64,000 nucleotides of DNA from an uncultured Anaerolineales bacterium (GTDB lineage: Bacteria; Chloroflexota; Anaerolineae; CG2-30-64-16). Positions 14,275-32,500 of this stretch are shown here, in pieces. The stretch is from contig CAYYTK010000002.1 of the NCBI GenBank assembly GCA_964474695.1, positions 43,898 through 107,897 of the forward strand, in the 5' to 3' direction. The notes below the pieces were generated by a model, which ran no database searches, was not told where the DNA came from, and saw only the letters and a list, made by a program, of their open reading frames with translations. The position numbers and the translations under genes are program-made. Each line of letters begins with the position of its first letter. Position 1 is the stretch's first letter.

Positions 14275-14301
14275 GGTTGATTCACGACCGGAGATGCTTC
14301 C

Positions 14302-16866: not shown

Positions 16867-16996
16867 TTGATGGATTTTGCGACCGATCCCAGATCGATCC
16901 GCCGCCTGATCTATTGTAAACCAAAAGACGGAATAAACGAATATCGGCGCGTGGCTGCGGGCGGGTGCAGTGATCCTGAATGATCGGTGAGTGGAA

Positions 16997-17025
16997 TTGT
17001 AGAGACGCGCAGGATCGACTATAAT
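16997..17025 (+). promoter_or_regulatory. Putative promoter for the sulfotransferase / AP-family operon
   Basis: TTGTAG (16997-17002), 17 nt, then TATAAT (17020-17025), in the divergent intergenic region. Confidence 0.45.
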
Positions 17026-17116
17026 CGTCTGTTGCCGCCGCTGGCTTTGTCAGCACAGGCGAGAGACCCCCTTGCAGGCGCCTCGACGGATGCGCAGGCC
17101 AGGATTTGAGGCAGAT

Positions 17117-17698
17117 ATGACCAGCGATTTCATTACGGTTGTCTCCGGGGTGCCGAGATCAGGGACCTCAATGATGATGCAGATGCTTGAAGCCGGCGGG
17201 ATGCAGATCCTGACCGACAGCATCCGTACGGCGAACCAGGATAACCCTCGCGGCTATTATGAGTTTGAGCCCGTCAAGGGATTGCCCAAGGGGAACTCCG
17301 ACTGGGCGCCGCTGGCCCAGGGAAAAGTCGTCAAGGTCATATCCGCCTTGCTGGAATATCTGCCCGCGAACTACGATTACAAGCTGGTGTTCATGCAGCG
17401 CAGGATCGATGAAGTGATCGCCTCGCAGCGCCGAATGCAATCACACCGGGGCGAACCGCAATCCGAAATCAGTGATGAGAAGCTGGCCGGGATGCTTGAG
17501 CGACATCTCACCAGGGTGAAAGCCTGGCTGTCTCTGCAACCTAACATCACGGCCGTTTCCATCGACTACAATCAGCTTATAACCGACCCACTCCCCCACG
17601 CATTGGCCGTCAACCACCTTGTGGGAGGGCGACTGGACGTGCAGCAGATGTGCGCTGTGGTGAACCCGACACTGTATCGAAACAGATCGCCGCAATGA
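17117..17698 (+). CDS. Sulfotransferase family protein
   Basis: The 5'-PSB (PAPS-binding) loop VSGVPRSGTSMMMQML lies at the N-terminus. I chose the start at ATG 17117; the track ORF begins 15 codons earlier. Confidence 0.75.
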   Translation: MTSDFITVVSGVPRSGTSMMMQMLEAGGMQILTDSIRTANQDNPRGYYEFEPVKGLPKGNSDWAPLAQGKVVKVISALLEYLPANYDYKLVFMQRRIDEVIASQRRMQSHRGEPQSEISDEKLAGMLERHLTRVKAWLSLQPNITAVSIDYNQLITDPLPHALAVNHLVGGRLDVQQMCAVVNPTLYRNRSPQ

Positions 17699-17716
17699 TC
17701 ATCTCCGAGGTATATC

Positions 17717-19462
17717 ATGTCTGACCATCCGTCGGCTCGCCGTGTCCTGGTCATCGGCCTGGACGGAGCCACCTTCAATGTCATTAAGCCGTTGATCGCC
17801 CAAGGGCGTCTGCCCACCCTGGCGCGCCTGATGCGTGAAGGAGCTCACGTCCCGTTGCGCTCCACCATCCAACCTTCTTCAGAGCAGGCCTGGGCCAGCT
17901 TCATGACCGGCGTGCAAAACGGCAAGCATGGCGTTTTCAGCTTCGTGCGACGACGGCCGGGGAGCTACGAATTCGAGTACATCAGCGGGCGGAACGTCCG
18001 CGCACCGGCGTTGTGGGATATCCTCTCAGACCGCGGCCGTCCGACGATCACCATCAACGTCCCCATGACTTATCCCCCGCATCCGGTGAAGGGTGTGCTC
18101 ATCGGTGGGCTGATGTCACCGGGGGAACACAGCCGCTTCACCTATCCGGATGGCATATACGAGGAGTTGTGCCAGGCCGTAGGCGGATACATTATCGATG
18201 TGGATATCGAGCGAGGCGACCTGACCCATGAGGAAGAGGTGCGGATGGTGGAGCAGGTGTTCGAGATGACACGTCTTCGGACGGCGGCCACGCTGCACCT
18301 GGCCCACACCCGCCCCTGGGACCTGCTCACGGTCGTCTACGGCTCGCCGGACCGGGTGTCGCACAAGTTCTGGAAATATATGGACCCGACGCATCCCCTC
18401 TACACTGCCGAAGGGGCCGCGGATTTCGGCGAGGTGATCCCTCGCGTGTACGAGGCGATGGACGCGGCCATCGCTGAGTTATTGGCGGACCTGGCCAATG
18501 AACAAACAACGGTCCTCATCTTGTCGGACCACGGTTTCGGGCCGATGCGCCACGCTGTCTACCTGAACAAGTGGTTGGCGCAGCATAGCTACCTGACCTA
18601 CAAGTCAACAAATGCCTCTCCGGCCCAGCAGGCGCGAGCGGCATTCGTCAAGACCATGCGGCGCGCCATGCGCTGGCTCGACAACCCGCTGCTGAGCTGG
18701 CTGAAAGCCCGCGCCTTCGAGCTGCGGCCGGCGCTGAAAAGCGCGCTCTTCTCATCGATGACCTTTGCCCAGGTGGACTGGTCCCGCACCCAGGCCTTTG
18801 CGGTTGGCACAATGGGCAATATCTACCTGAACGTGCGCGGGCGGGAGCCTGCCGGAATCATCGAGCCAGGGGCAGAATACGAGAAGCTTCGAGAGCGGCT
18901 GATGGCTGAGCTCGCGACCCTGACCGATGACACGACACAGGCGCCAGTGTTCAACGCGATCTATCGCCGGGAGGAGCTTTACCAGGGGCCGTATCTGGAA
19001 GAGGCTCCCGATATCGTCTGCCTGAAGGATGCCCGCTACCATGTTGCAGCAGTGGATTGGCGGACACGTCCCGATGATCGGGTGCTGGTGCCACTGCAAC
19101 AAGGGGAACTCCTTTTCGCCGCCGACGTCTCAGCGCAGCACGAGCTGGACGGCATCCTGATCGCCTGGGGGAACGAGGTGCGCGCGGGCAAATCGCTGGC
19201 CGGAGCCCGTATTGTGGACCTTGCCCCCACCATCCTGCAACTGCTCGAAGAACCGGCGCCAGAGGAGATGGATGGCGCTCCGCTGCTTGGAGAGTCCCTG
19301 AAAACTCTAACCAAGGACACGGAGATCAAGGCACAAGGATTTCCCGCGCCGGCTCCCACACCTGTCGTTGTAGACCGTGGGGAAAACCCGAGCGACGGCT
19401 ACACAGAGGCTGAGAAAGCGGAGCTAGAGGCCCATTTGCGCAGCCTGGGGTATCTGGACTAA
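17717..19462 (+). CDS. Alkaline-phosphatase-superfamily enzyme (type I phosphodiesterase / nucleotide pyrophosphatase family)
   Basis: VLVIGLDGATFNVIKPL (metal-ligand Asp region), ...GSPDRVSHKFW..., ...ILSDHGFGP. The gene follows the sulfotransferase after 18 nt. Confidence 0.8.
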   Translation: MSDHPSARRVLVIGLDGATFNVIKPLIAQGRLPTLARLMREGAHVPLRSTIQPSSEQAWASFMTGVQNGKHGVFSFVRRRPGSYEFEYISGRNVRAPALWDILSDRGRPTITINVPMTYPPHPVKGVLIGGLMSPGEHSRFTYPDGIYEELCQAVGGYIIDVDIERGDLTHEEEVRMVEQVFEMTRLRTAATLHLAHTRPWDLLTVVYGSPDRVSHKFWKYMDPTHPLYTAEGAADFGEVIPRVYEAMDAAIAELLADLANEQTTVLILSDHGFGPMRHAVYLNKWLAQHSYLTYKSTNASPAQQARAAFVKTMRRAMRWLDNPLLSWLKARAFELRPALKSALFSSMTFAQVDWSRTQAFAVGTMGNIYLNVRGREPAGIIEPGAEYEKLRERLMAELATLTDDTTQAPVFNAIYRREELYQGPYLEEAPDIVCLKDARYHVAAVDWRTRPDDRVLVPLQQGELLFAADVSAQHELDGILIAWGNEVRAGKSLAGARIVDLAPTILQLLEEPAPEEMDGAPLLGESLKTLTKDTEIKAQGFPAPAPTPVVVDRGENPSDGYTEAEKAELEAHLRSLGYLD

Positions 19463-19471
19463 CCCGCAGTT

Positions 19472-20500
19472 CTAGACGGATAAGTGGACCGGCTCACCGG
19501 TGCGTGCGGACTCGTACATGGCCAACACCAGCGCCAATGAGTTGCGCGCTTCGGGACCATTCGTTTTGGGTTCACGATCCTCGCGGACCGCTGCGATCAT
19601 GTCCGCAATCACTGCCCGGTGGCTGGTGCCGTAAACCGAAGGCGGGTCCACCTGTTCGCGCGTCAGCAATTCCCGTTCATGCTCCAGCTCCCCTGCCACC
19701 TTCCACAACACTTTTCGGTTCAGCGCGGTGCCGCCCACCTTGGCTGAACCGCGCTCGCCGAAAATGGCCACCGAACCTTCGAGGTTCTCCGGATAGGTGA
19801 CGGTCGAGCCTTCGACTGTGCCGAGCGCACCATTACGAAAACGGATCACAGCCACACCGACATCCTCAGCCTCCATACGATGCGCCAGCGTTCCGGTGTA
19901 GGCAAATACGCTCTCAGGCGCGCCGAGGAGCCATTGCAGCGCATCGATGTGATGGATCGACTGGTTCATCAGCGCGCCGCCATCCATAGCCCAGGTGCCG
20001 TGCCAGTCGTCCTCATAGTATTCCTGGGTGCGATACCAACGCACGGTCGCACTGCCGAGCAACAGCTTACCCAACGCGCCGGCATCCACCAGCCGCCGCA
20101 AATCTTGCATGGGTGGGTTGTAGCGGTTCTGCAACACCACGCACAGCTTGCGGTCTGCGGCCTTGGCCGCGGCAATCATCCGGTCGGCATCTGCCAGCGA
20201 CAGTGCGATCGGCTTCTCAACCAAGACGTGCTTGCCGGCAGCTAACGCGTCAACAGCCATCTGCGCGTGCAGGCCACTGGGCGCGCAGATATTCACGACA
20301 TCGATATCAGGGCGCGCCAATAGGGCATGGTAGTCGGTGTGCCCCTCGGCGCCTTGCCGCGCGGCGAACCGTTCCGCCCTGTCTTCGCGAATATCGGCCA
20401 CCGCGACAAGCCGGGCGCCCGGCAGGCTGGCGATCGATTCCGCATGGCGGGGCGCTACACGTCCGCAACCGATCAACCCGCATCTGAGTTCATCTGTCAT
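19472..20500 (-). CDS. Gfo/Idh/MocA family oxidoreductase
   Basis: Rossmann motif RCGLIGCGRVA close to the chosen ATG (20500), then EKPIALSLADADRM. The track start at 20536 would overlap the upstream GT4 gene by 29 nt. Confidence 0.85.
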   Translation of the reverse strand: MTDELRCGLIGCGRVAPRHAESIASLPGARLVAVADIREDRAERFAARQGAEGHTDYHALLARPDIDVVNICAPSGLHAQMAVDALAAGKHVLVEKPIALSLADADRMIAAAKAADRKLCVVLQNRYNPPMQDLRRLVDAGALGKLLLGSATVRWYRTQEYYEDDWHGTWAMDGGALMNQSIHHIDALQWLLGAPESVFAYTGTLAHRMEAEDVGVAVIRFRNGALGTVEGSTVTYPENLEGSVAIFGERGSAKVGGTALNRKVLWKVAGELEHERELLTREQVDPPSVYGTSHRAVIADMIAAVREDREPKTNGPEARNSLALVLAMYESARTGEPVHLSV

Positions 20501-20507
20501 TTCACAC

Positions 20508-21722
20508 TCATACGCAGCTTTCGTCAGGCGCACCATCGCACGCAGGCGCGTCCAAACCGTATAACGCCAGGGTCTGCCTCAAGACCGCCGGCCAGGCGAA
20601 GTGCTGGCGTGCAAACTCATAACCGTCTTGGCCGAGCCGCCTGGCCAGCGCCGGATCATCAAGCAGCCGCTCAAGCACATCTGCCAACGCCCGCGGATCG
20701 CGCTGCTCAACCAGCAAACCCGTCTCCTGATCAACGACAATATCCGAGATGCCCCCAACCCGGGTCGCCACGACAGGCTTGCGATAGCGCATCGCCTCCA
20801 ACGACACCATGCCCAACATCTCGGTGTCACCGCCGCTATCCACGATCGCGGGCAAAACAAATACCTGGCACCGCGCATAGAAGTCGTTCAGCACCTCATC
20901 GGAAACCCGACCCGCCAACGTCACCCGACCCGCCAGGTTGTAACGCTGGATGGCTGCCTCGAGCAGCGGCCGCTCATGGCCTTCGCCCACAATCACCAGG
21001 TGGGCCTCCGGGTGATGGGTCAGGAGTGACATCGCTTCTATCAGATACACCTGGCCCTTGCGTTCTACCAGACGGCCGACGTTCAAGATCAGCCCAGGCT
21101 CCGCGACTGCCTCGACTTCAGCGGGAGGCAGCTCGATGCCGTATGGAATAATGTACGGCTCCACACCGGCGATCTTGCGGGTCTCCTGAGCGGTGAAGGT
21201 CGAGATGGCGGCCACCGCGTCGCAATGCCGGGCGAAATACCGCACAAAAGAACGGAAAATACCGGACCGGCGGCTCAACACCAAGTCAGCTCCGTAAAAA
21301 GTGGCCACCAGCCGGCTACCCCCGGCACGCCGGGCGGCCAATCCCAACAGCCCCTGGGGCACCGGCCAATGCACATGGATCAGGTCGAACCGGCCTCGCC
21401 GCGCCAGGCGGTGCGCTGCCAGCAACCCAGCCAACAGGTAAAATGGCAGCAACAACAGGTAGAGGGGGTTGCGACGGATTTTGTTGGGAGCACCCTCATT
21501 GTGGGTCAAGGTCTCCCACCGCGCGGGCGCGTAGCGGAACCGATGCACCGGCATACCCTGGATCGTATGGGTCCGGCTGCCCGCATAGGCGGGTGCAAGC
21601 ACCTCGATCTCGAAGCCGCGCTCGCGCAGGAGCCCGAGCAGGTGAACCAGCCAAGGCGAGTGGGGGTCGCCTTCCCAGCGCGGGTAATTGGTGGTGACGA
21701 TCAGCAGCTTGGGCATAGTCAA
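20508..21722 (-). CDS. Glycosyltransferase family 4 (GT-B, group 1)
   Basis: LIVTTNYPRWEGDPHSPWL at the N-terminus and the C-terminal GT-B motif VFVLPAIVDSGGDTEMLGMVSLEAMRYRKPVVATRVGG. Confidence 0.85.
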   Translation of the reverse strand: MTMPKLLIVTTNYPRWEGDPHSPWLVHLLGLLRERGFEIEVLAPAYAGSRTHTIQGMPVHRFRYAPARWETLTHNEGAPNKIRRNPLYLLLLPFYLLAGLLAAHRLARRGRFDLIHVHWPVPQGLLGLAARRAGGSRLVATFYGADLVLSRRSGIFRSFVRYFARHCDAVAAISTFTAQETRKIAGVEPYIIPYGIELPPAEVEAVAEPGLILNVGRLVERKGQVYLIEAMSLLTHHPEAHLVIVGEGHERPLLEAAIQRYNLAGRVTLAGRVSDEVLNDFYARCQVFVLPAIVDSGGDTEMLGMVSLEAMRYRKPVVATRVGGISDIVVDQETGLLVEQRDPRALADVLERLLDDPALARRLGQDGYEFARQHFAWPAVLRQTLALYGLDAPACDGAPDESCV

Positions 21723-21755
21723 AGCCTGCCAGAAAGGGCTATCGGCGAATCCATC

Positions 21756-22712
21756 TCACCCGCCTTCATCCCGCCCAGCCCGAACCATCTGGTCCAGCTC
21801 TGTCAATTGGTCGGCCTGGCTGACGACCAACTCCGCAATGAAACCGACCAAGAACAGGAGGATGCCGACAATTGCCAGCCCGATCGCGGCCCAGAACACG
21901 GGACGGCGCTGCGTTTCGCGACTCAGCCACAACCACAGCAGCCAGGCAAAAGCCGATCCGCTGAGCAGCAACGAAGCCAGACCCAGGCCGCCGAAGAAAC
22001 GCATAGGCGCCCGGCTGAAGGTGAGCAGGAACCAGACCACCAACACGTCGAGCAACGAAATGGGGATGCGGCTGAAGCCGAACTTGGATCGGCCGGACCG
22101 GCGCTTGTGCCAGGGAGTTGCCACCTCACCGATGCGATAGCCCTGATGCGCGGCAATGTGCAGGATGAAACGATGCCAGTCAGATCGCAACGGGGGCAAC
22201 GATTCGATCACCTCACGGCGGAACCCCTTGATCCAGTTCATGTCGTGCAGACGGAGGCCAAACAGGCCGCGCGAAACGAGATTGTAGATGCCCGAGGCAA
22301 AGACCTTGCCCTCCTTGCGCCCTTGCCGCCAGCCGGCCACGACATCATAACCCTCCGCCAGCTTATCGAGCAACAAGGGGATGTCGGTCTCAGGATCGGA
22401 CTCCAGGTCAGCAGGCAAGAACAGGATCAGATCTCCGCGCACGGCACGGAACCCCGAACGCAAGGCGGCCGTCAGGCCCAGATTGCGGCGGTGGTGAATG
22501 ACGCGCAAGAAGGAATAGCCAACGCTTAGCTGATCGACCAACTCGCTGGTGCCGTCGGTGGATCCATCATCGATGAGCACAAGCTCCCCCTGGCCGGGAG
22601 CAAGCCCCCGTGCGGCAAAGGCCCGATCGACCCGAGCTACCAGTTCGGCCACGTTGCCGGCTTCATTGTGCGCGGGCACCAACACCGAAATCTCAGGATC
22701 CATTTGACTCAC
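21756..22712 (-). CDS. Glycosyltransferase family 2, polyprenol-phosphate sugar transferase-like (DPM1/GtrB/ArnC type)
   Basis: ISVLVPAHNEAGNV...LIDDGSTDGT...LPADLESDP, plus two C-terminal TM helices. Confidence 0.85.
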   Translation of the reverse strand: MSQMDPEISVLVPAHNEAGNVAELVARVDRAFAARGLAPGQGELVLIDDGSTDGTSELVDQLSVGYSFLRVIHHRRNLGLTAALRSGFRAVRGDLILFLPADLESDPETDIPLLLDKLAEGYDVVAGWRQGRKEGKVFASGIYNLVSRGLFGLRLHDMNWIKGFRREVIESLPPLRSDWHRFILHIAAHQGYRIGEVATPWHKRRSGRSKFGFSRIPISLLDVLVVWFLLTFSRAPMRFFGGLGLASLLLSGSAFAWLLWLWLSRETQRRPVFWAAIGLAIVGILLFLVGFIAELVVSQADQLTELDQMVRAGRDEGG

Positions 22713-22883
22713 TCATTGCGACAGGCCGTCCGAATCGAAGCGTTACGATGACGTCACACGGCGGGAGACACCGGCCACAGCCGGCTTACCTGCTCCGCTA
22801 TTATACGTGGGAAGTGGATGTTCACAAAGATGAGGGACGCGCTCATCCGGGGGCACAGGTATTGGACGGGGCGCTCACTGCGT

Positions 22884-24158
22884 CTACCGGCGATCAAGCA
22901 CGGAATGCAGCGCGGCAATCTCGCCTTGCACTAGATCAATCTCGGCCAGCACCTGCGGAGATACAAATGTCAGCTCCCGTGCGCGCATCAGCTCCAACTC
23001 CACCAGGCGCGTCCGCCGGGCGTTGAGTTGCGCAACCAACGAGCTGGTATCCTGCGGCTGTTGGCGCGCAAAGGCGCGGCGTAGGGCGGCATCAGACATA
23101 TCCAATGCAGGCATGACATCCAATTGCTCACCGGCTGCAGCGAGCCAATCGGCCAAAAAGGCATTGCCGATCTCGACGCGATCGTAGGCGCGACGCAGGT
23201 AACCCAGGGCCTCCAGATTATCCAGGCGTTGGCTTAGCTCGGCCGGACTGTCACCGGTCACTTTCAGCAGAAGAGTCTCATTGGCCAATGCCTCCCGATG
23301 AACGGCAAGCACTGCGCGACGATCAGCCTCAGTGAGTTGTAGAAAGTCGTGTTCGAAAAAGCCCGCCAGGATCGGCTCAACGCGCAGATCATCATCCTGC
23401 AAACCGCGCAGCGATCCATCCTCCAGGAAAAGCCTGGAGCAGAGCAACTGCAGCAACAGCGGATGATTGTTGGTGGCGTGCGAAATCGCCTCGACTGCCT
23501 CGGAAGTCACACGCACGCGTTCGGAAGCCTGCGCCTGTGTGATCAACGCCTCAGCGGCCGCGGGCGCCAGGCTGCCCAAGGCCCGAGACATGTCGAACCC
23601 GGACAGAAAAGGAGAAGTCGGCCAATCTCGGCACACATCGTGCATCCCATAGATGCGCCGGGTCGACGTCATCACCGCACGCAATCCCACCCCGGCAGTA
23701 AGCTGGCGGTGCAAACGCTGCATGGCTTCAGGCTCGGATCTGGCGATATTGATGAGCACCTCGGTCTCATCGCACAACAACAGGAGCTCACGACCGGCCC
23801 GCATGGCCAACCGGCGCAGGTTGACCAGCAAGGCGAGCGCATCTTCCTCATCCGCCAGGGCAGACAACATTCCGAGCGACTCAAGCAACTCCGCACGCTC
23901 CTGGAGTGCATCCGCCAGGTAGCGGCCCAGGCAGAGGAATGAACCGCACCCTTGCAGATCCCAAAAAATCGGCACGAACCGCTCCTCCGCCAGGGCCAGC
24001 ACCTCAAGCTGGCGCAGCAGCGACGTCTTGCCGATGCGCCGATTGCCTACCACCCAACAGGCACGACTTTCGCCATGCAACAAGTAGTCAAGCAGAGCCT
24101 CTCGGCCATAGTGCCTGCTTCCGGTCACATAGGAACCCGTCACATAAGGATTTCGCAC
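22884..24158 (-). CDS. Soluble STAND/AAA-type P-loop NTPase with C-terminal winged-helix-like and coiled-coil regions
   Basis: NPYVTGS..YGREALL pre-motif, Walker A GNRRIGKTS, Walker B LLLCDETE, then TSPFLSGF and HPLLLQLLC motifs. GTG start with GAGGAA 5 nt upstream, 26 nt after the stop of the upstream paralogue. Confidence 0.7.
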   Translation of the reverse strand: MRNPYVTGSYVTGSRHYGREALLDYLLHGESRACWVVGNRRIGKTSLLRQLEVLALAEERFVPIFWDLQGCGSFLCLGRYLADALQERAELLESLGMLSALADEEDALALLVNLRRLAMRAGRELLLLCDETEVLINIARSEPEAMQRLHRQLTAGVGLRAVMTSTRRIYGMHDVCRDWPTSPFLSGFDMSRALGSLAPAAAEALITQAQASERVRVTSEAVEAISHATNNHPLLLQLLCSRLFLEDGSLRGLQDDDLRVEPILAGFFEHDFLQLTEADRRAVLAVHREALANETLLLKVTGDSPAELSQRLDNLEALGYLRRAYDRVEIGNAFLADWLAAAGEQLDVMPALDMSDAALRRAFARQQPQDTSSLVAQLNARRTRLVELELMRARELTFVSPQVLAEIDLVQGEIAALHSVLDRR

Positions 24159-24184
24159 AGCATTCCTCGTAAGTTCAGCCCGTC

Positions 24185-27100
24185 CTAGCTGCCATAGCTG
24201 CGTTGAATGGCTTCATGCGCGGCCATCACATCCGCGAGAGTGATACGCAAGCGCTTAGCCGCTAACATCAAGTTCACCGCTTCGAGCGCATATTGTTGAA
24301 GGCGATGCGGCCGGCCCGCAGATTGATCGATCACGAAATCCAGCGCCTCCTGATCCCACTCATAGACGCCACGCACCGGCTCGGCCAACAACTTACGGGC
24401 TTGATCAGGGGGAAAAGGCTCCAGCTCGATTTCATTGAACAGATTGTACCAGGGACTCTCCAGGCGGTCCCATTCCTTGCTGATCTGGATACCCGCCACA
24501 ACTGCCCCCAGATTGGTTGCGAGAGCGCTCATAAAGACCCGGCGGAGCTGTTGTTGCACGAGCGTATTGTAACTGCTCAGCACATCCATCTCATCCATCA
24601 ACAAGATCACACGAAACTTGCGCGGCTCGACCACATCCTTAAGGCGATCCAGCAGGCCTCGAAGATCGGCCACGAAGTCGCGATCGTCGTATTCAACAGG
24701 TGCGACAGTCTGATAGTGGGGGACAAAGGTATCGTCGGTGAGATAGCCCTGCAGCGCGCCCCAGATAGCATCCATCAAATGATGAAAGAACTGCTCCTCC
24801 GGCGTGCCTTCCAGGTCGACGTAGACCGGCACGAAAACCCACTCGGGATCTTCCGCCTGACGCAGTTGATCGGCCAGTTGATAGAGCAACGTGGTTTTCC
24901 CCATCCGCCGCTCGCCATGAATCATGATGCTGTTCTGATGCAAGGCGTTAAAAATGCGCCGCAGCAACTCGTCACGCCCGAAGAACATGTCCGCCTGGCG
25001 AATGGGCTCGCCGGAGATGTACGGATTGAACGCACGCGCCAGCGCTTCGCGCTGCCGCTCAGCCGTTTCTGCTGCCATCTTTCGAGCGCGGGCCCGGGCA
25101 CGCAGGCCAATGCCGCTGCTGGCGCCCATGCCCGCCACGGCCAGGACCCCCAGCGCTACGAACGGATAGAACACATCGGCCCGCACGCGCTGACCGCCGG
25201 GCAGCCTCACCAATTGCGGTATCACAATGTTAACCTCCGCCGATTGGGAGTAGTTGAACGCAGCATCACGCGCAGTCACGCGCAGAACGTAGGTGCCCGC
25301 TGACAATGTCCGGCTATTATAGGAGGTGATTTGCGCATCGGTGTGAATCTGGGGGACCACATCAACGCCCGATAGTTGCGTCAGGTAGATCAGATCCTTC
25401 GCGCGAGTCGCCAAGTCGCCGCCTTGCACTCGCACGATCTGAATAAGATCGCTATCGAATGTCACACTGCCATCGTGAGGCGTTTGAAGGTTGACCGACT
25501 CGATCTCAACCCAGGGCAGGGATCGCTCCGGCCTGTGGCGCACCAGTCCACTGGTGGTGCCGATCCAAGCCGATCCCTCCGACCCGGCAGCAACGGCTGT
25601 CACCCAGCCGTCAGGCAGGACATCTCCGGCATAGCTCTGCCAGGTCGTGCCATCAAATCGCGTCACCCCCTGGCGGGTGCCCACCCACAGGCCATCCGCC
25701 GCATCGAGCGACAGCACCTTGGGACTGGCCAGATTCATATCCATCCGTTCCCAACGCTCGTCGCGATAGCGCCACAGTCCATCATTGTAGGTGCCCACCC
25801 ACAGGCTGCCGTCCTCAGTCTCCCCAACGCCATCGACGACCACATCGTTCACACTCGCGCCGCTTGAGCCTGCAAACGTTTGCCATTGGCCCTCGACTCG
25901 CCGCAGCATGCCATCCGACCGGGTTCCGAACCACAAAACGCCGTCAGCAGCCTGATACACGGCATTGACGCGTTTGCCTTCCAGTTCGACCACGCGCTCG
26001 AATCCGCCGGACTCAGTCCACCGCACGGCGCCCTGCCCAGATGCCAGCCACACGCCATCCTGCGCATCCTCGGCAAAGGCAAACACCGGGGGGCCAATCA
26101 AATCCGATCCTGCCAATGGTTCGAACTGCCACGATTGCGCCGATTGTGTCAAGAACCCCACAGTTGTGCCCGTCGAAACCCAGATACGGCCGGCCTTATC
26201 CTCAAACAGCGCCACGATCCGATCGTCGAGCAGATCCTCGCCAGCAGATAGCCTCTGCCAGCTTTCCCCGTCCCATAGGGCCAGGCCCTTGGACTCAGTC
26301 GCCGCCCACACGCGCTGCTCCCGATCGACCAACACGGCGTTGATGCGCTGCCCACTCACAGGCTCGTCCGTCACAACCTGCCAGATAATGCCGGCATAGC
26401 GATTCACGCCGCCGATGGTGCCCAGCCATAGCGCACGATCGCGATCGATAGCCATTGCGCGCACATAGTCATTGACAAGACCACCCGACTTTGCACGCAG
26501 ATGCGTTACGGGCAGGCCGTCCTGCCGGCCATCGGGATCATGGATTACCCCTCGATCAGTGCCCACCCACAGGCCGCCCTGCGGATCACGGACAATGGAC
26601 AACACCGGCAAACGGCTGTCATCTTCAGTCAGCGGAAACTGCACCCAGCTTCCGCTCGCTCGATGCACAAGTCCATGCGACGTGCCCACCCACACGTCGT
26701 CGGCTCCTTCAGGCCAGAGCACATAAAGATCCCCCTGGAGCAGGGCATCTTCGTCCGCAACCCACCGCCCATCGCCGTCACCGCGCCATATCCCGCGCCC
26801 CTGCACTCCTACCAACAAGTGATCATCGAACGTAAGCGCCAGGGCCTGGATGTTGCCCTGCGGAATGCCGCTCGCAGCTTCCACCCTCTCGGGGTCCACG
26901 TAGACAAGCCCTTGAGAAGTGCCGGCCCAGACACCTTGCCTGTCATGATCGACGGCAGGCGCCAGGCTGAGAATATCATCCGATGGAAGCCCATCATTCT
27001 GAGTCCAGACAGTGCAACGTTCGCTCCCGGGCGCAAGCCGCGCCAGGCCCGAGCTTGTGGCAAACCAGAGCGCGCCATCGTCAGTCTGGGCGATTGCGTG

Positions 27101-27373
27101 CACTTTGCCTGGCGGCAGACCATCCGCCTCAGAGTACCAACGCCATTCGCCGGTGTAGCGGGCTGCCCCGGTGTCGGCGCCGAACCAGAGCGCACCATCC
27201 TGTGCTACCAGAACGGACAGGATATTGCCGGAACGAAGGCCATCCGCAACGGTAAAAGTTGACCAAAGCGAAGCCGGGCCTTCGGCAGCTTGTGCCGGCG
27301 GCAATCCCAAAAACAAAAGGAATACCAACAACCAGAAACTGATCCGCCTCGGCACCTTAATATTACTAAGCAT
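24185..27373 (-). CDS. Membrane protein: signal peptide, extracytoplasmic two-component-regulator-propeller (Reg_prop-like) repeats, Y_Y_Y-like Ig domain, one TM helix, and a cytoplasmic STAND/AAA-type P-loop NTPase
   Basis: At least 10 repeats of the DG.LW.GT..GL.R type span aa ~40-620. An Ig-like segment (AGTYVLRVTARDAAFNYS) follows, then a TM helix VFYPFVALGVLAVAGMGASSGIGL (nt ~25106-25174). The cytoplasmic part carries NPYISGEP...FFGRDEL, Walker A GERRMGKTT (nt 24890-24916), Walker B ILLMDEMD and SPWYNLF. I prefer ATG 27373; the track uses TTG 27379. Confidence 0.75.
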   Translation of the reverse strand: MLSNIKVPRRISFWLLVFLLFLGLPPAQAAEGPASLWSTFTVADGLRSGNILSVLVAQDGALWFGADTGAARYTGEWRWYSEADGLPPGKVHAIAQTDDGALWFATSSGLARLAPGSERCTVWTQNDGLPSDDILSLAPAVDHDRQGVWAGTSQGLVYVDPERVEAASGIPQGNIQALALTFDDHLLVGVQGRGIWRGDGDGRWVADEDALLQGDLYVLWPEGADDVWVGTSHGLVHRASGSWVQFPLTEDDSRLPVLSIVRDPQGGLWVGTDRGVIHDPDGRQDGLPVTHLRAKSGGLVNDYVRAMAIDRDRALWLGTIGGVNRYAGIIWQVVTDEPVSGQRINAVLVDREQRVWAATESKGLALWDGESWQRLSAGEDLLDDRIVALFEDKAGRIWVSTGTTVGFLTQSAQSWQFEPLAGSDLIGPPVFAFAEDAQDGVWLASGQGAVRWTESGGFERVVELEGKRVNAVYQAADGVLWFGTRSDGMLRRVEGQWQTFAGSSGASVNDVVVDGVGETEDGSLWVGTYNDGLWRYRDERWERMDMNLASPKVLSLDAADGLWVGTRQGVTRFDGTTWQSYAGDVLPDGWVTAVAAGSEGSAWIGTTSGLVRHRPERSLPWVEIESVNLQTPHDGSVTFDSDLIQIVRVQGGDLATRAKDLIYLTQLSGVDVVPQIHTDAQITSYNSRTLSAGTYVLRVTARDAAFNYSQSAEVNIVIPQLVRLPGGQRVRADVFYPFVALGVLAVAGMGASSGIGLRARARARKMAAETAERQREALARAFNPYISGEPIRQADMFFGRDELLRRIFNALHQNSIMIHGERRMGKTTLLYQLADQLRQAEDPEWVFVPVYVDLEGTPEEQFFHHLMDAIWGALQGYLTDDTFVPHYQTVAPVEYDDRDFVADLRGLLDRLKDVVEPRKFRVILLMDEMDVLSSYNTLVQQQLRRVFMSALATNLGAVVAGIQISKEWDRLESPWYNLFNEIELEPFPPDQARKLLAEPVRGVYEWDQEALDFVIDQSAGRPHRLQQYALEAVNLMLAAKRLRITLADVMAAHEAIQRSYGS

Positions 27374-27397
27374 AGACAATCACCCGCACGGGAGATA

Positions 27398-27426
27398 TTG
27401 CAGTGGATACCAGAATATGATATAAT
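27398..27426 (+). promoter_or_regulatory. Putative promoter with extended -10 for the LysM gene
   Basis: TTGCAG (27398-27403), 17 nt including TG at 27418-27419, then TATAAT (27421-27426). Confidence 0.5.
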
Positions 27427-27521: not shown

Positions 27522-28097
27522 ATGAATAACCATCTGGCCGGCATCAATCTGCTGATCATAGTCATTCTCTTAGGGCTATCCTCCACCCTGGCGCCGAGTC
27601 GCGCCTCCGCTCATAGCGCAGTGCAAAGCGCCGCATCAGCAAGCTGCGGCCCTTCCTATGTGGTCCGTTCAGGCGACACCCTTTCGGGGATTGCGCGGCG
27701 CTGCGGCGTTTCAGCCTCCACCCTGGCGCAAGCCAACGGACTGAGCCTCAGCTCAGTGATCTATCCCGGTCAACGGTTGGCAGTGCCCGGCACTTCGAGC
27801 TATTCATCCGGCGCCACAAGCTCATCGAGCTCGACAGGTTGTCCAGCAAGCTACACAGTGCGCTCTGGCGACACTCTCGGCAGCATTGCCAGACGTTGCG
27901 GCGTTTCCGTGGCCAGCCTAAAGCAGTGGAACGGCCTCCAATCAAGCACGATTCGTCCCGGCCAGGTCCTCATTACCCGTGCAACACGATCATCAGCCAG
28001 AACCACAAGCCCGTCCTACTCGGCCACGCCGATAGCCGATCAGGCAACGGCGCCTACGCCCACGCCTTCCATCGAGTCACCTGTCTATCCGTGGTAG
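27522..28097 (+). CDS. Secreted protein with two LysM peptidoglycan-binding domains
   Basis: Signal peptide, then YVVRSGDTLSGIARRCGVSASTLAQANGL and YTVRSGDTLGSIARRCGVSVASLKQWNGL. Confidence 0.85.
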   Translation: MNNHLAGINLLIIVILLGLSSTLAPSRASAHSAVQSAASASCGPSYVVRSGDTLSGIARRCGVSASTLAQANGLSLSSVIYPGQRLAVPGTSSYSSGATSSSSSTGCPASYTVRSGDTLGSIARRCGVSVASLKQWNGLQSSTIRPGQVLITRATRSSARTTSPSYSATPIADQATAPTPTPSIESPVYPW

Positions 28098-28133
28098 ATT
28101 ATAGCGCACAATCGCCAGAAATGCAAGCACCAA

Positions 28134-30863
28134 TTATTGGACAATTTCGACGCGCTCCAATGCCAGCGCAGCCTCCGGCGCGCTCACCGGAAGTCCGGCT
28201 GACACCTGAACGGCGACAACGCCGCCGACCGCCTCAGCAGCAGCGCCTGGCGTCCCACCCACCTGGCCGATGAAAGCATGCCCCCAACGGAATCGGCCGC
28301 GCAGGTCGACGGCCACGCCTAAGCGAGCCAGGGCGGCAACACCCTCCTCCGTCAATTGGGCGGTCCCCTCATCTCGCACTGCACCGGCAACCGCTGCGCC
28401 AGCAGGTAACGCGGCCACCCAACGCGCCAACCCGGCGCTGGCCGCCGGATCGCCATGCGTATCGAAACTGGCCGCGGCCAACACCGTGCCGGTGACCGAA
28501 TCAAAAGCTACCAGGTTATAGCCGCGTTGGTTGAGCGAACGATCAACCCCATCGATGTAGATATGAGCGAAGTCGCCGGTCTCTTGTCCCGCGCTGCGCA
28601 CCAACACTCCGGCCACACCCACCCGACCGAGTTGCCGGGCTAACTCGGTCACAGATGTCGTCAACGTAAAACGCAAGCGCACATCACTGAGAGGTGGCCG
28701 CGCCGGATCGGCCGGGATGGCGAATTCAAGCTGCCGCGCCCCCTGGGGCCAGGGCTGCTCGCCGATCGCTCGGCCATCGACAAGCAATGTCACGCGCTGA
28801 CCGGCCGCAAGCGATTGCCCATCGAAGCGTACTGTCGTCGCGCCCGACGGCAAAGGCAACAGAAGCCGGGCCTCGCGACGCTGCGCATACACAGTTGTTG
28901 GGTGCGCGCCGCCGGCCGGGGGACTCCATCCTTCGCCCAGGATAGCGCGCCCCTGATCCGTGCCAGGAAAGAAAACGCTCGACGGCGCCAGCGGCTCAGC
29001 AACACGATAGAGGACCAGGTCGCCTTCTTCGGCCACCGTCGTCACCGGCAGAAGCTGGCGCAGCAGCGTCTCGGCCTGAGCCGGCAGCTTATCCCGGTGC
29101 ACCATGACATAGCGAATATCAAAGAAAGCGGCCCATGCACGGGCCGCGGCCGCGTCGTCGTCGGTCACCGGCAAGGCCGCCAATGCGGCACGTAAGGCAT
29201 CGTGCTGGGGCAGGTCGGCGGCGTTTGTCAGGGCGATCAGGCGCGCCAGCGTAGGATTTTCGCTGAAGTACTGGAATTTAACCTCCGGATTACGTGAGGT
29301 ATTACCTCCCAAAAGGCGTTTGCCGTGGCGGGCCTGGTACCAAAGCTGCTGCATAATCAGGATATCCTGCTTGCCGGCCACGCGCGCGCCGTTGCGCCAG
29401 CCTAAGGGCAACTCCAGCAGGGCAAAATCTTCCGGCTCTGCTGCAACAATGTCATAGAGCGCCGGGACCTTTCCCAGGTTCGATGTCGGCAGAGGCAGCG
29501 ATAGATGTTCAAACGTCAACAAGGCAAGCGTGAACGCGAAGCAACCCAAGGCGTAGCCCGACAACTGGAAGCCGTCCCCGCTTTTGCGAGGCCGGCCCAC
29601 GCTGCCCAGCAGCCGCTGCATCCCCAATGCCACCAACGGCGCCAGGCTGGCCAAAAGCATGACGCTGTAACGGCTGGGGTAGCGGTTGCCCTTAAAGAAC
29701 GGCAACTGCTCCATCAGCCGAAACGGCAAGGGAAAGCCGGTGTCGACGCCGGCAATACGCAGGCTGGGGCCCAAGGTCAGCAAAAGGAAGAGCAATGCTG
29801 CCGTCGCCCAAAACCAACTTCCCCCCCAACGTCGTCCGTGCCACATGCCGACAACGGCCAGTAGCACTGCCACGTAGCCAAGGTAAATATGCTGTCCTTT
29901 GTTCACCGCGAATTCCCGACCGGCCGCCTGCGGGGATGCATCGCCGGCCCACCCGCGAATCACATCTCCCAGGAGCGGATGAAGCTGTGTCGGCACGGCA
30001 TAGCCGGCCAGATCGGCCGAGAACACATCGGCAAACCCGCCGCCAGACGTGAAAAAGTCCCCTTCAGCCCGCAAATCGGGGAGCATGTTGGCCAGGACCG
30101 GTGCGATCCCGACGGCAAAAAGCACCCCCAACAGCACAAAACGAACAATCCATGGAAGCGCCTTGGCCCCAGAAAACAATCTCCAAAGCACTACCAATCC
30201 GATGAAGACCAGCAGAAAAGACGCATAGGTCAACTCCGCGTAAGCCTGAAGAAGCAGAAACAGCGCCGCCAGCACAGCATCACGCGGCCGGCCTTCCGTG
30301 CGCGCGGCGCGAAGCACATAGAGCATCGCGAAGGGGATCCACTGCGAGCTGGCGATATTCCCTTGCCCCAGCGCCGCGTAAAACATCTTGGCCGAAGCAA
30401 ACGCATAAAGCGCACCGCCGAGAAAGGCCGGCAAAAAGACAAGCAAGTCAGGAGGCCTGGCAGGCCCCCGCCCCCCCTTACTTCCCGGTTTCCAGGCGCC
30501 CAGGACCTCCACACACAGCAGGTAGGCCCCAAAACCGCTGAGGACAAAGGATGAGAGGAGCAGAGTATTGTAGGCTGGAATAATGCCAAAGATGGCCTGG
30601 AGCGGCACGCTCAGCAAGCCGTTGAGGATGGTGAGGGTGTAGAACGCAAGGTTGATGCCGATGGGCCAAAACTGCCAGTTGCATGCAAAAGGATTCTGCA
30701 ACTGATCCACCAGGGAATGCTTGACCCACCACAAGTTCCACGCCAGCGCTGGATCGTCGATGCCGTCGCCGGGAACGTGTGTGGCAAACTGCGCTGCCAG
30801 CGGCCATGTAAGCACAAGGCTCAGGAATAGATAGGCCAACAAGACCCAGATATGTCTGCGCAC
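28134..30863 (-). CDS. Large polytopic membrane protein (GT-C/YfhO-like N-terminal half) with a C-terminal ILEI/PANDER-like domain
   Basis: N-terminus WPLAAQFATHVPGDGIDDPALAWNLWWVKH, followed by more than 10 TM segments. The C-terminus (HIYIDGVDRSLNQRGYNLVAFDSVTGTVLAAASFDTHGD...AVRDEGTAQLTEEGVAALARLG) fits the ILEI pattern (FDT...DE...L...LG). GTG start with a GAGG RBS. Confidence 0.7.
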   Translation of the reverse strand: MRRHIWVLLAYLFLSLVLTWPLAAQFATHVPGDGIDDPALAWNLWWVKHSLVDQLQNPFACNWQFWPIGINLAFYTLTILNGLLSVPLQAIFGIIPAYNTLLLSSFVLSGFGAYLLCVEVLGAWKPGSKGGRGPARPPDLLVFLPAFLGGALYAFASAKMFYAALGQGNIASSQWIPFAMLYVLRAARTEGRPRDAVLAALFLLLQAYAELTYASFLLVFIGLVVLWRLFSGAKALPWIVRFVLLGVLFAVGIAPVLANMLPDLRAEGDFFTSGGGFADVFSADLAGYAVPTQLHPLLGDVIRGWAGDASPQAAGREFAVNKGQHIYLGYVAVLLAVVGMWHGRRWGGSWFWATAALLFLLLTLGPSLRIAGVDTGFPLPFRLMEQLPFFKGNRYPSRYSVMLLASLAPLVALGMQRLLGSVGRPRKSGDGFQLSGYALGCFAFTLALLTFEHLSLPLPTSNLGKVPALYDIVAAEPEDFALLELPLGWRNGARVAGKQDILIMQQLWYQARHGKRLLGGNTSRNPEVKFQYFSENPTLARLIALTNAADLPQHDALRAALAALPVTDDDAAAARAWAAFFDIRYVMVHRDKLPAQAETLLRQLLPVTTVAEEGDLVLYRVAEPLAPSSVFFPGTDQGRAILGEGWSPPAGGAHPTTVYAQRREARLLLPLPSGATTVRFDGQSLAAGQRVTLLVDGRAIGEQPWPQGARQLEFAIPADPARPPLSDVRLRFTLTTSVTELARQLGRVGVAGVLVRSAGQETGDFAHIYIDGVDRSLNQRGYNLVAFDSVTGTVLAAASFDTHGDPAASAGLARWVAALPAGAAVAGAVRDEGTAQLTEEGVAALARLGVAVDLRGRFRWGHAFIGQVGGTPGAAAEAVGGVVAVQVSAGLPVSAPEAALALERVEIVQ

Positions 30864-31017: not shown

Positions 31018-32472
31018 ATGGGTCGTTACCAGGATGCCCTGGAGTACATTTTCAATTACGTAAATTACGAGAAAAAGGCGCGCTATCCTTACGATGCAGT
31101 GACTTTCGACCTCAGCCGGATGGAGCACTTGCTCGAGAAGCTGGGACGCCCCCATGAGCGTTTTCGCTGTGTCCATATCGCCGGCACCAAAGGTAAAGGC
31201 TCGACCTCGGCAATGGTTGAGTCAGTGCTGCAGGCGGCCGGCTACAAGACGGGCCTTTACACCTCGCCGCACCTGCACACCTTCAGGGAACGAATTCGCC
31301 TGAACGGCGGCCTGATGAGCAAAGCCGAGTTGGTCGATCTGCTGGAATACTGCAAACCAGCCATCGAAGCAACCCCCGACATTACGGCTTTCGAGATCAT
31401 GACAGCGCTGGCATTTGAGTTCTTCGCTCAAAACGGGGTCGATTGGGCGGTGTTGGAGGTCGGTCTCGGCGGTCGCCTGGATGCCACCAACGTGGTGCAC
31501 CCCACTGTCTGTGCCATCACCAGCCTGAGCTATGATCATGTGGAGCTGCTGGGTCACACCTTATCCCTCATCGCGTTCGAAAAGGCCGGCATTATCAAGC
31601 CGGGTGTGCCGGTCGTCAGCGCACCGCAAGAGCCGGAAGCGATGGCCGTCATTCAGCGGGTCTGTGCCGACACGAAAGCGCGGTTAGTTGTCGTGGGACA
31701 GGATTGGACATACGAACAAGGCGATGCGCCTGGCTTGCCATACGATCTGACAGGCCAAACCCTGACCGTGCGCGGGCCTGGGGATGAGCCGCTGCTGAGA
31801 AACCTGCATCTGTCGCTCTTGGGCCGGCACCAACGCGATAATGCGACCACAGCGATCGCCATCCTGCAGGAATTGCGCAACCAGGGCATCCACATCCCCG
31901 ATGAAGCGCTGCGAACCGGCCTGGCGGCTGCACGTTGGCCGGGACGCTTTGAGATATTGCAGTGCGATGCCAGGTCGCAGCATTGCCCGACCTTGGTGGT
32001 CGATAGCGCCCACAACGAGAATTCCGCGCAAAAACTGCGCGCGGCGCTGGCTGACTATTTTCCGCGTCCGCCCAGGCGACAGTTGGCCGTGATTTTCGGC
32101 GCGTCATCCGACAAAGATATCATCGGCATGCTGAAGACGTTCCTGGAGCCTGTAGCCAGCACCGGCTACCGGCCGGCTGACAAGGTCATCGTCACCAAGA
32201 GCGGTCACCCGCGCTCAGCCGAGCCGGCGCAGCTTGCCGACCTGGTGCGCAGCGTCAACGCGACCTGCCCCATCAGTGTCCACACCAATCTCAACGCGGC
32301 GTTTACCGAGGCGCTGGCCTGGGCCGGACCGGATGATCTCATCTGCGTGACAGGATCGATCTTTGTGGTGGCCCAAGCGCGGCGCGCCTGGGCTGCGCGC
32401 CACCCTGATGCATTTGCCCCAGACGACTGGGTTTTCGAAGATGAGACGGCGGGAACGCCGGTACCGGACTGA
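31018..32472 (+). CDS. folC: Bifunctional folylpolyglutamate synthase / dihydrofolate synthase
   Basis: Mur-ligase P-loop HIAGTKGKGST, plus YTSPHL, EVGLGGRLDATN and DSAHN. Confidence 0.9.
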   Translation: MGRYQDALEYIFNYVNYEKKARYPYDAVTFDLSRMEHLLEKLGRPHERFRCVHIAGTKGKGSTSAMVESVLQAAGYKTGLYTSPHLHTFRERIRLNGGLMSKAELVDLLEYCKPAIEATPDITAFEIMTALAFEFFAQNGVDWAVLEVGLGGRLDATNVVHPTVCAITSLSYDHVELLGHTLSLIAFEKAGIIKPGVPVVSAPQEPEAMAVIQRVCADTKARLVVVGQDWTYEQGDAPGLPYDLTGQTLTVRGPGDEPLLRNLHLSLLGRHQRDNATTAIAILQELRNQGIHIPDEALRTGLAAARWPGRFEILQCDARSQHCPTLVVDSAHNENSAQKLRAALADYFPRPPRRQLAVIFGASSDKDIIGMLKTFLEPVASTGYRPADKVIVTKSGHPRSAEPAQLADLVRSVNATCPISVHTNLNAAFTEALAWAGPDDLICVTGSIFVVAQARRAWAARHPDAFAPDDWVFEDETAGTPVPD

Positions 32473-32500
32473 GACGACACCGGATTGTGGTGGAGGAATC

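Follow-up and report, generated by a model that had tools for sequence, protein, structure and literature searches.

Two adjacent minus-strand genes, here called A and B, lie in a 64,000-nt stretch (the window) of contig CAYYTK010000002.1 from an uncultured Anaerolineales bacterium of the Chloroflexota. An initial annotation, made from the letters of the sequence, had proposed a transmembrane (TM) beta-propeller sensor fused to a P-loop NTPase of the STAND (signal transduction ATPases with numerous domains) or AAA type and followed by a soluble paralogous NTPase, and had read the pair as an outside-in signalling device. Both of its open reading frames are present where it placed them (Table 1). 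We find that A joins an extracytoplasmic double propeller to an AAA+/STAND-like NTPase, that B carries a second such NTPase followed by a winged helix and a tail, and that in related loci the two genes mostly stay adjacent while the input region of A and the tail of B are exchanged.

Domain anatomy of the two proteins

Pfam assigns Reg_prop repeats to the A product (E=3.8e-44), gives weak Big_13/Y_Y_Y matches at aa 660-720, and places P-loop families at aa 794-1034. The initial annotation had listed at least ten propeller blades; we counted 13 clear blades and one degenerate blade, spaced by ~40 aa, and therefore read the region as two seven-bladed propellers. A phmmer search of the Protein Data Bank (PDB) with the ectodomain returns the periplasmic sensors of Bacteroides hybrid two-component systems (HTCS), 4A2L (E=1.5e-29) and 3V9F (E=5e-26). 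At the position equivalent to the Ig-like domain, Y_Y_Y scores above threshold in two A homologues (P0329, P0288).

The hydrophobic segment at the A N-terminus has a basic n-region and an AQA/A site, as judged from Kyte-Doolittle (KD) hydropathy and sequence, and many A homologues also have an N-terminal hydrophobic segment. This signal-like segment, the single TM helix and the RARARARK stretch that follows it place the propellers outside and the NTPase inside. The topology was read from hydropathy only; together with the positive-inside residues it supports the TM helix and the outside-in arrangement proposed earlier. No match to HisKA/HATPase_c, receiver or AraC helix-turn-helix models was obtained for A in Pfam or NCBIfam at E<=0.1, in line with the initial view that A has no histidine kinase output. 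A Pfam scan of both products likewise found no nuclease, NADase, protease or pore domain.

The C-terminal part of A, correctly recognized before as a P-loop NTPase, is of the AAA+/STAND kind by Pfam, AlphaFold2 (AF2) and Foldseek. Among Pfam families, AAA_16 (2.9e-8) and AAA_22 match it, nSTAND1 (PF20703) reaches 27.7 bits against a cut-off of 27.1 over profile positions 11-235 of 379, and ATPase_2 (PF01637), at 26.5 bits, falls below its gathering threshold of 33.2. AF2 models of this cytoplasmic part and of B were built with family alignments. The A model (mean confidence score, pLDDT, 91.6) has a juxtamembrane helix, an AAA+ nucleotide-binding domain (NBD) and a helical lid, and then ends. 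The best Foldseek matches are PAB2304 (2qen, 4.9e-11), Orc1/Cdc6 (2qby), SSO1545 (2fna), and subunits of the origin recognition complex (ORC) and replication factor C (RFC); a sequence search of the PDB with the profile of the module gave marginal Orc4 and Rpt matches only. Thus, the description as AAA+/STAND-like is justified, whereas strict STAND membership is marginal for A, because the winged helix is missing, the nSTAND1 score is close to threshold, and the best folds are those of ATPase_2/PAB2304 and Orc1/Cdc6. Both Walker motifs are intact and invariant in homologues, and N26, P27, G31, P33, F40 and R43 of the N-terminal NTPase motif are invariant among 29 homologues. R187/R188 and a WDR loop provide candidate arginines for an arginine finger or sensor 2.

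For B, Pfam yields weak AAA matches only, with none to nSTAND1 or ATPase_2, and NCBIfam yields no match. Its AF2 model (pLDDT 82.7) comprises NBD, lid, winged helix and two long C-terminal helices, and Foldseek matches it to 2qen, Cdc6/Orc, 2fna, the NB-ARC modules of plant NLRs (nucleotide-binding leucine-rich-repeat receptors), Avs3 and MalT. The family profile over the winged helix finds the MarR-family protein HosA (8aga, E=1.5e-4), further MarR proteins and Lrp. Within the NTPase, TSTR resembles a sensor-1 motif and TNNHP is GxP-like, and TSTRR and CRDW are candidate arginine-finger/sensor-2 motifs. Five residues of the coiled-coil tail (L374, R382, E387, L388 and R392) are invariant in 21 orthologues. 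The B family has >825 matches, mostly 425-435 aa long and without Pfam annotation; among B-type proteins the winged helix is the last constant domain (hidden Markov model (HMM) positions up to ~347).

A and B share a P-loop of the unusual form G-x-R-R-x-G-K-T, the N-terminal sequence NPY..G with (F/Y)GR(D/E) after it, and an SP(W/F)..F loop. The proposed paralogy holds in that the two family profiles cross-match, with the caveat that BLASTP aligns the two proteins over the first 75 residues only (36% identity, E=3e-9).

No terminator-like site was found between A and B in a consensus scan. Most of 20 orthologous loci inspected by eye (among L002-L032) have a TATA[AGT]CAT-type motif ~40-60 nt upstream of the A start; it is probably the -10 box of an A-B promoter, in the divergent region common with the LysM gene, although the consensus promoter scan did not return it. 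An operator search by eye upstream of A showed no evident palindrome, and this element only. The hairpin and promoter that had been noted between B and the downstream glycosyltransferase gene (22800-22848) are real consensus matches but carry no weight, because the counts of the consensus scan for promoters and terminators equal those in shuffled sequence (2 against 1.6, and 5 against 5.5).

Table 1. Features of genes A and B and of their surroundings, in window positions.
Feature	Positions	Strand	Basis or remark
Gene A	24185-27379	minus	1064 aa, TTG start; ATG two codons further in
Signal peptide and gene A start (MSMLSNIKVPRRISFWLLVFLLFLGLPPAQA/AEG)	27287..27379	minus	KD hydropathy peak aa 13-31
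Tandem seven-bladed Reg_prop beta-propellers, extracytoplasmic, aa ~35-640	25460..27277	minus	Pfam and blade count
Ig-like (Y_Y_Y/Big_13-like) membrane-proximal domain, aa ~645-725	25205..25447	minus	Weak Pfam: Big_13 E=0.013, Y_Y_Y E=0.074
Single TM helix, aa ~736-760, then RARARARK	25100..25174	minus	KD hydropathy 1.66-1.80
Juxtamembrane helix and N-terminal NTPase motif NPYISGEP..FFGRDEL	24980..25099	minus	AF2 helix, residues 2-23 of cytoplasmic part
AAA+/STAND-like NTPase module of A: NBD and helical lid, without winged helix	24188..25027	minus	Pfam, AF2, Foldseek
Gene A Walker A (GERRMGKT)	24890-24916	minus	Invariant in homologues
Gene A Walker B (LLMDE)	24584-24607	minus	Invariant in homologues
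A-B spacer, 26 nt, AGGA-type ribosome-binding site	24159..24184	minus	Sequence
Gene B	22884-24158	minus	424 aa, GTG start
Gene B NTPase, NBD and helical lid, aa 1-274	23337..24158	minus	Alignment, AF2, Foldseek
Gene B Walker A (GNRRIGKTS)	24021-24047	minus	Invariant, 21 orthologues
Gene B Walker B (LLLCDETE)	23760-23783	minus	Invariant, 21 orthologues
Gene B winged helix-turn-helix, aa ~275-335, MarR/Lrp-like	23154..23336	minus	AF2: three helices and beta-hairpin
Gene B C-terminal coiled-coil tail, aa ~356-424, and stop codon	22884..23093	minus	Long helices aa 370-394, 401-423
Candidate -10 promoter element (TATATCAT)	27417..27424	minus	~40-45 nt upstream of A start
Weak hairpin	22835-22848	minus	Between B and GT2 gene; consensus scan
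Sigma-70-like promoter match TTGTGA-16-TATAAT	22800-22827	minus	Between B and GT2 gene; consensus scan
Secreted protein with two LysM	27522-28097
909-aa polytopic membrane protein, C-terminal ILEI domain	28134-30863
GT2 with C-terminal TM helices	21756-22712
DUF2079 protein	14302-16866
PMT_2-like protein	12175-14274

Conservation of the pair and exchange of its ends

When one genome was scanned for each species, 167 relatives were confirmed, and 80 loci were retrieved and compared by tblastn with the A and B proteins of the window; loci with at least 1 kb of upstream sequence (75) were taken as informative. All but one of the 80 come from genomes titled Chloroflexota or lineages thereof (Anaerolineae, Anaerolineales, Caldilineales/Caldilineaceae, 'Chloroflexia', Litorilinea and Ca. 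Amarolinea aalborgensis). The remaining locus (L031, CAVPGA010000009.1) has an Anaerolineae-type block of A, B, two glycosyltransferase (GT) genes (GT2, GT4) and a GFO gene in a metagenome-assembled genome (MAG) titled 'uncultured Bacteroidales bacterium', a title that likely reflects mis-binning or mislabelling.

Of the 75 informative loci, 73 have an A gene with propeller and NTPase ahead of B and in the same orientation, and the distance is <400 nt in 65; the conservation of the pair that the initial annotation had asked to see tested is found. The gap widens to 0.6-1.7 kb in eight loci (L042, L039, L041, L048, L056, L067 and L072 among them). Identities of A and B co-vary (r=0.58), and adjacency persists as B identity falls from ~90% to 36%. 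In Caldilineaceae, the NTPase of A is the most conserved part (52-60% identity to the window), B retains 36-40%, and the propellers are least conserved (27-30%), a gradient that would be expected if a sensor evolves fast while the transducer behind it is constrained. One Anaerolineales subgroup (L013, L022:7700-9979, L023:7644-9983, L026 and L027:3793-6249) has a shorter A, of 759-818 aa in the three complete genes (L022, L023, L027), with roughly one propeller; its NTPase is 29-33% and its B 54-57% identical to those of the window.

The cytoplasmic module of A was also searched against 1.84 billion representative proteins, which gave 4892 matches at E<=1e-3 and 353 at E<=1e-30, counted as clusters at 50% identity. 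The module is C-terminal in nearly all of the best 150, which are ~700, 810-835 or 1050-1400 aa long. Of the 125 representatives with enough N-terminal sequence, 112 have a hydrophobic TM segment ahead of the NPY motif, and in 109 of these 112 the linker between segment and motif measures 10-24 residues (median 14). The input regions themselves are diverse: Reg_prop with Y_Y_Y, tetratricopeptide repeats (TPR) flanked by a signal peptide and a TM segment, unknown domains, or a Response_reg receiver without a TM segment. Some family members exceed the ATPase_2 threshold (such as P0110, 53.1 bits, and P0060, 51.4 bits). A single taxon-labelled member falls outside Chloroflexota, in an Acidobacteriota MAG. 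A 1173-aa metagenomic protein (P0283) joins SIR2_2 and a full nSTAND1 domain (213.9 bits) to a C-terminal A-type module, and is a soluble, conflict-system-like relative of that module.

Neighbourhoods of four non-propeller A members were inspected, and a B-type gene lies directly downstream in all of them. (i) In the receiver variant (L082:3020-5922, L083, L084:206-3189, L085, L108), a CheY-like receiver stands in place of ectodomain and TM helix. At L082-L085 the A stop and B start overlap by 4 nt, and the partner matches the B profile through the winged helix (E=1e-112) before continuing into a TIR-like tail, which scores 27.2 bits with CAP12-PCTIR_TIR (cut-off 24.7); the B-type protein of L084 also matches nSTAND1 at 34.8 bits. 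These four loci sit among genes for GFO, LbH-acetyltransferase and DegT aminotransferase proteins, and a phage-type integrase adjoins L083. (ii) In the Acidobacteriota MAG (L086), the gene after that for a TPR-TM-NTPase protein encodes a B-type protein with a fused Ser/Thr kinase domain (Pkinase E=1e-45), in which HRD and DFG motifs are present. (iii) In an untyped metagenome lineage (L087, L088), a FadL-like outer-membrane protein gene precedes A and a B-type protein with a degenerate kinase-like tail. Such a FadL/Toluene_X-type channel gene adjoins the pair at L086:5515-11358, L087:5640-10728 and L088, overlapping the A start by 4 nt in L087, and may be a third component in bacteria with an outer membrane.

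Metagenome contigs were scanned with the A-module profile, giving 80 further retrieved loci in which B was located by six-frame HMM search. In 61 of them A has a B-type neighbour, which follows it in the same orientation in 55 cases and is divergent in 6; of the 19 without B, eight have <750 nt of downstream sequence. Tails were analysed in 70 B-type matches including those of L082-L088, 60 of which are uncut by a contig end: 21 end at the winged helix (~346 aa), 20 have the coiled coil of the window type and 19 have something else, namely a Ser/Thr kinase with HRD and DFG motifs, a TIR-like domain, a two-TM anchor, or short helical regions. The two-TM anchored proteins (L125:709-2586(-), L130:2122-3957(-), L142:741-2570(-), L148:4338-5828) share the motif RRxVFRVGIAYxVxAWLLLQ...GLPxALILAWAFELTPEG and, in three of four cases (L125, L130, L142), are divergent from A. 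The architecture search suggested by the initial annotation thus shows the A module recurring with swapped inputs and its B partner with swapped outputs.

Within Anaerolineae the pair usually lies in a block of cell-envelope glycan genes. The order in many loci is Lon, Mur-ligase-like gene, ILEI protein, divergent LysM gene, A, B, optional DegT, GT2, GT4, GFO/IDH/MocA oxidoreductase and two GT-C-like membrane proteins (DUF2079, PMT_2). The A-B neighbourhood is a core, vertically inherited envelope-glycan block and not a variable island, and the proposed link to glycan genes is supported within Anaerolineae, the receiver variant included. Around the pair of the window (12175-22712 and 27522-30863; compare L001-L032) the block likewise includes GT4 and GFO/IDH/MocA genes, and it has three GT-C-like membrane proteins in all. 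Upstream of the ILEI-domain gene, and transcribed away from it, are a Mur-ligase-like gene (484 aa) and Lon protease (31018-35065, plus strand); most Anaerolineales loci keep these two in synteny with the cassette. As listed, the Lon frame (TTG at 32363) overlaps the preceding gene by ~110 nt, and its true start is probably further downstream.

A receptor-plus-partner reading and its alternatives

In A the TM helix, linker and NTPase are constant, in B the NTPase, lid and winged helix, and it is the input at one end and the tail at the other that vary; this arrangement argues for a signal-transduction cassette. At a comparable locus with sugar genes a receiver replaces ectodomain and TM helix, which argues for a position of the A NTPase downstream of signal input, and the adjacency that persists while both ends are exchanged points to functional coupling of the two genes. 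The data show how the domains are arranged, that A and B both have intact Walker motifs, that the pair is conserved, and that inputs and outputs are modular. From these we infer A-B contact, oligomerisation, a ligand and target genes. Our preferred reading is that A and B form a receptor-plus-partner transmembrane signalling cassette, and we give this model as a whole a probability of roughly 0.55. The earlier signalling proposal is partly supported, and its idea of the NTPase as output is strengthened by the swappable inputs and outputs.

The cassette might work as follows. A ligand would bind the double propeller of A outside the cell, and the signal would be relayed through the Ig-like stalk, the TM helix and the short, rigid juxtamembrane helix, by analogy with the Bacteroides sensor BT4663. 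The nucleotide state or accessibility of the A NTPase would then change, so that it could recruit the NTPase of B and nucleate nucleotide-dependent oligomerisation, as a sensor NLR does with a helper NLR. The constant winged helix of B and its lineage-specific tail, a coiled coil in the window and other tails elsewhere, would deliver the output. Kinase and TIR domains are classically switched on by induced proximity, which an oligomerising switch NTPase would deliver. For the window, the input would most likely be a cell-envelope glycan or cell-wall fragment, and the likeliest output would be regulation of the envelope-glycan genes next to the pair, probably at the level of transcription and by way of the MarR-like winged helix. 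This specific version, with glycan as input and transcription as output, we consider rather doubtful.

Several observations weigh against the preferred reading or parts of it. Eleven of the 80 metagenome loci have downstream room but no detectable B. In Ca. Amarolinea aalborgensis (L042:8581-10035, minus strand), an opposite-strand gene for a pyridoxal-phosphate (PLP) enzyme of the Cys/Met-metabolism type intervenes between A and B, so co-transcription is not universal. The glycan-gene context is limited to Anaerolineae: the Caldilineaceae context consists of the pair and a weakly matching GFO-family gene (23-26% identity), and Acidobacteriota neighbours are different (FadL-like outer-membrane protein, kinases). 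DNA binding by B is uncertain, because in the orthologue alignment the putative recognition helix of its winged helix is not notably basic or conserved; the winged helix of NBD-lid-winged-helix modules can also be purely regulatory, as in Apaf-1 and NLRs. The TIR-like tails and the SIR2-nSTAND1 fusion of P0283 hint that some relatives are conflict systems.

Of the alternatives, the one that survives best has the pair as non-signalling envelope-glycan machinery, a membrane scaffold or ATP-driven organiser of GT-C enzymes whose propeller would hold the nascent polymer, comparable to Wzc or CapA-CapB. The Anaerolineae pair does sit persistently among GT2, GT4, the three GT-C-like proteins, sugar-modifying enzymes and LysM, and the receiver variant among its GFO, LbH-acetyltransferase and DegT genes; the propeller gives a weak partial match to PorZ, named as a delivery protein for a glycan, anionic lipopolysaccharide (A-LPS), and the topology resembles that of split BY-kinases (bacterial tyrosine kinases). 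We nevertheless hold it unlikely: the fold is that of AAA+ proteins, Orc/Cdc6 and ATPase_2, not MinD/SIMIBI, and no C-terminal tyrosine cluster is present, while outside Anaerolineae the glycan genes are missing, and outputs of kinase, TIR-like or winged-helix type behind TPR or receiver inputs fit signalling better.

Less probable still is a STAND-type anti-phage or conflict system, in which A would sense events outside the cell or at the envelope, for example phage adsorption or damage to the wall, and B would oligomerise and kill or arrest the cell. Weak nSTAND1 matches and STAND kinship speak for it, as do the relation of the TIR-like tail of some B relatives to the CBASS/Pycsar effector Cap12, the fusion in P0283, the integrase beside L083 and the precedent of a predicted nSTAND2 two-gene operon (PMC8195603). 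PADLOC-DB 2.0 gave no significant match, the best being PDC-S01 (E=4.4e-5) over ~55 residues round the P-loop, with Avs5 at E=0.066. Neither protein has a nuclease, NADase, protease or pore domain, and the common outputs of the partner are the winged helix alone or a Ser/Thr kinase. Synteny across the 80 retrieved genome loci, with housekeeping neighbours (Lon, Mur-ligase-like protein, glycosyltransferases), is unlike a variable defence island. Assignment of the window locus to a known defence system was accordingly rejected, with PADLOC and NCBIfam matches at the P-loop level only and conserved synteny against it.

That A and B are independent, B being a cytosolic regulator of the ATPase_2/DUF234 kind and A a separate membrane ATPase made adjacent by tandem duplication, would agree with their pairwise similarity being limited to 75 residues, with the separated genes of L042, with the two genome loci that have B without A (L030, L037) and with the 11 metagenome loci that have A without detectable B, but is improbable given that adjacency is kept down to 36% B identity and across phyla while inputs and tails are exchanged, and that 4-nt stop/start overlaps are common.

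To return to the receptor-plus-partner cassette, the evidence points to a receptor family in which a switch NTPase is the direct cytoplasmic output, with at least 353 clusters at 50% identity. Transmembrane signalling in bacteria is at present accounted for by few kinds of output, namely histidine kinases, chemoreceptors, cyclases and c-di-GMP enzymes, anti-sigma factors, Ser/Thr kinases and ToxR-like one-component proteins, and to our knowledge STAND/AAA+ switch NTPases have been treated as cytosolic sensors. If the reading is right, it amounts to a new wiring principle in bacterial signalling and makes the pairing of sensor and helper NTPases accessible in a bacterial model. It would also help to understand how filamentous Anaerolineae that are uncultured, such as Ca. 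Amarolinea of wastewater bulking, monitor or control their envelope. The kinase- and TIR-tailed versions would offer simple biochemical read-outs for the mechanism. More tentatively, the pair could be the founding example of a widespread, undescribed class of 'receptor NTPases', single-pass receptors whose extracytoplasmic sensors (propeller, TPR and others) are interchangeable or give way to a receiver, and whose juxtamembrane module would nucleate a cognate soluble NTPase-winged-helix partner with plug-in outputs; to this suggestion we give somewhat less than even odds. The plug-in outputs may be DNA binding, coiled coil, Ser/Thr kinase, TIR-like NADase or membrane anchor, and by analogy the class may be a prokaryotic outside-in counterpart of paired NLRs, beside two-component, extracytoplasmic-function (ECF) sigma and Hanks-kinase pathways.

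Comparison with known systems

No NCBIfam model covers an A-type or B-type protein among the curated family libraries, and a literature search found no published description of the receptor-NTPase plus partner architecture; the possibility, raised by the initial annotation, that this architecture belongs to an already characterized family thus found no curated family or publication behind it.

The best structural matches of both A and B are the ATPase_2 proteins PAB2304 (2qen) and SSO1545 (2fna) and Orc1/Cdc6. B resembles them in its series of AAA+ NBD, lid and winged helix. They differ in being soluble and without a receptor partner, and their sequence identity to A and B is 13-18%; the ATPase_2 model, with its threshold of 33.2 bits, is not reached by A and gives no match to B.

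For STAND membership, the standard we used is the superfamily definition reportedly given by Leipe et al. in 2004. With STAND NTPases such as MalT, Apaf-1/NLRs, bacterial Avs and nSTAND1 proteins, A and B have in common a P-loop NTPase with intact Walker A and B motifs (hhhhDE) and a GxP-like motif in the lid, and their pre-P-loop motif resembles what we take to be the type found in nSTAND1 proteins. The tripartite order of NBD, helical domain and winged helix is present in the AF2 model of B, while that of A ends after the lid, and B-type relatives carry outputs of kinase or TIR-like type that are activated by proximity. In contrast, the sensor of A is N-terminal and extracytoplasmic, where the STAND sensor is a C-terminal cytosolic repeat array, and the module is here split over two proteins, with A lacking the winged helix and nSTAND1 scores marginal. 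Pfam finds neither a cytosolic repeat sensor (TPR, WD40 or leucine-rich repeats) nor an N-terminal effector fusion in A or B.

The nearest two-gene precedent is nSTAND2, a predicted paired-STAND conflict operon for which a hetero-multimer is predicted (Kaur et al. 2021, PMC8195603). It resembles A and B in having adjacent genes that each encode a STAND-type NTPase, one with variable effectors, and differs in being described as mobile, with one eroded and inactive NTPase, GT4 or HEPN effectors and, in the section consulted, no mention of a TM receptor. A and B, by comparison, both have intact Walker motifs, their locus shows synteny and vertical conservation, and A is a receptor in the membrane. 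'System 4' of Kaur et al. 2020 was considered as a match and set aside as unrelated, being EACC1 plus caspase.

Two further pairings invite comparison at the level of organization. BY-kinase/co-polymerase pairs (Wzc; CapA-CapB), which occur in glycan clusters, are built on a membrane-spanning protein that has one domain outside the cell and, inside, a P-loop domain or a split partner; membership of A and B among BY-kinases was rejected on the AAA+ rather than MinD/SIMIBI fold and the lack of the C-terminal Tyr cluster that BY-kinases require. In paired sensor/helper NLRs (NAIP-NLRC4 and plant pairs), a ligand-bound sensor NTPase nucleates a related executor NTPase. These are eukaryotic and cytosolic with intracellular ligands, unlike A and B, and homology is claimed for the AAA+/STAND fold and no further.

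At its outer end A is most like the Bacteroides HTCS sensors (BT4663, 4A2L/4A2M; 3V9F), with two seven-bladed Reg_prop propellers, a Y_Y_Y/Ig-like stalk and a TM helix. The HTCS propeller module binds oligosaccharide and passes a conformational change across the membrane. Where HTCS continue into HisKA/HATPase_c, receiver and AraC domains, A has an AAA+/STAND-like NTPase. All of the domains of A and B are already known. The novelty lies in their combination, with a switch NTPase coupled directly to an extracytoplasmic sensor, and in the pairing of that receptor with a second, output-bearing NTPase.

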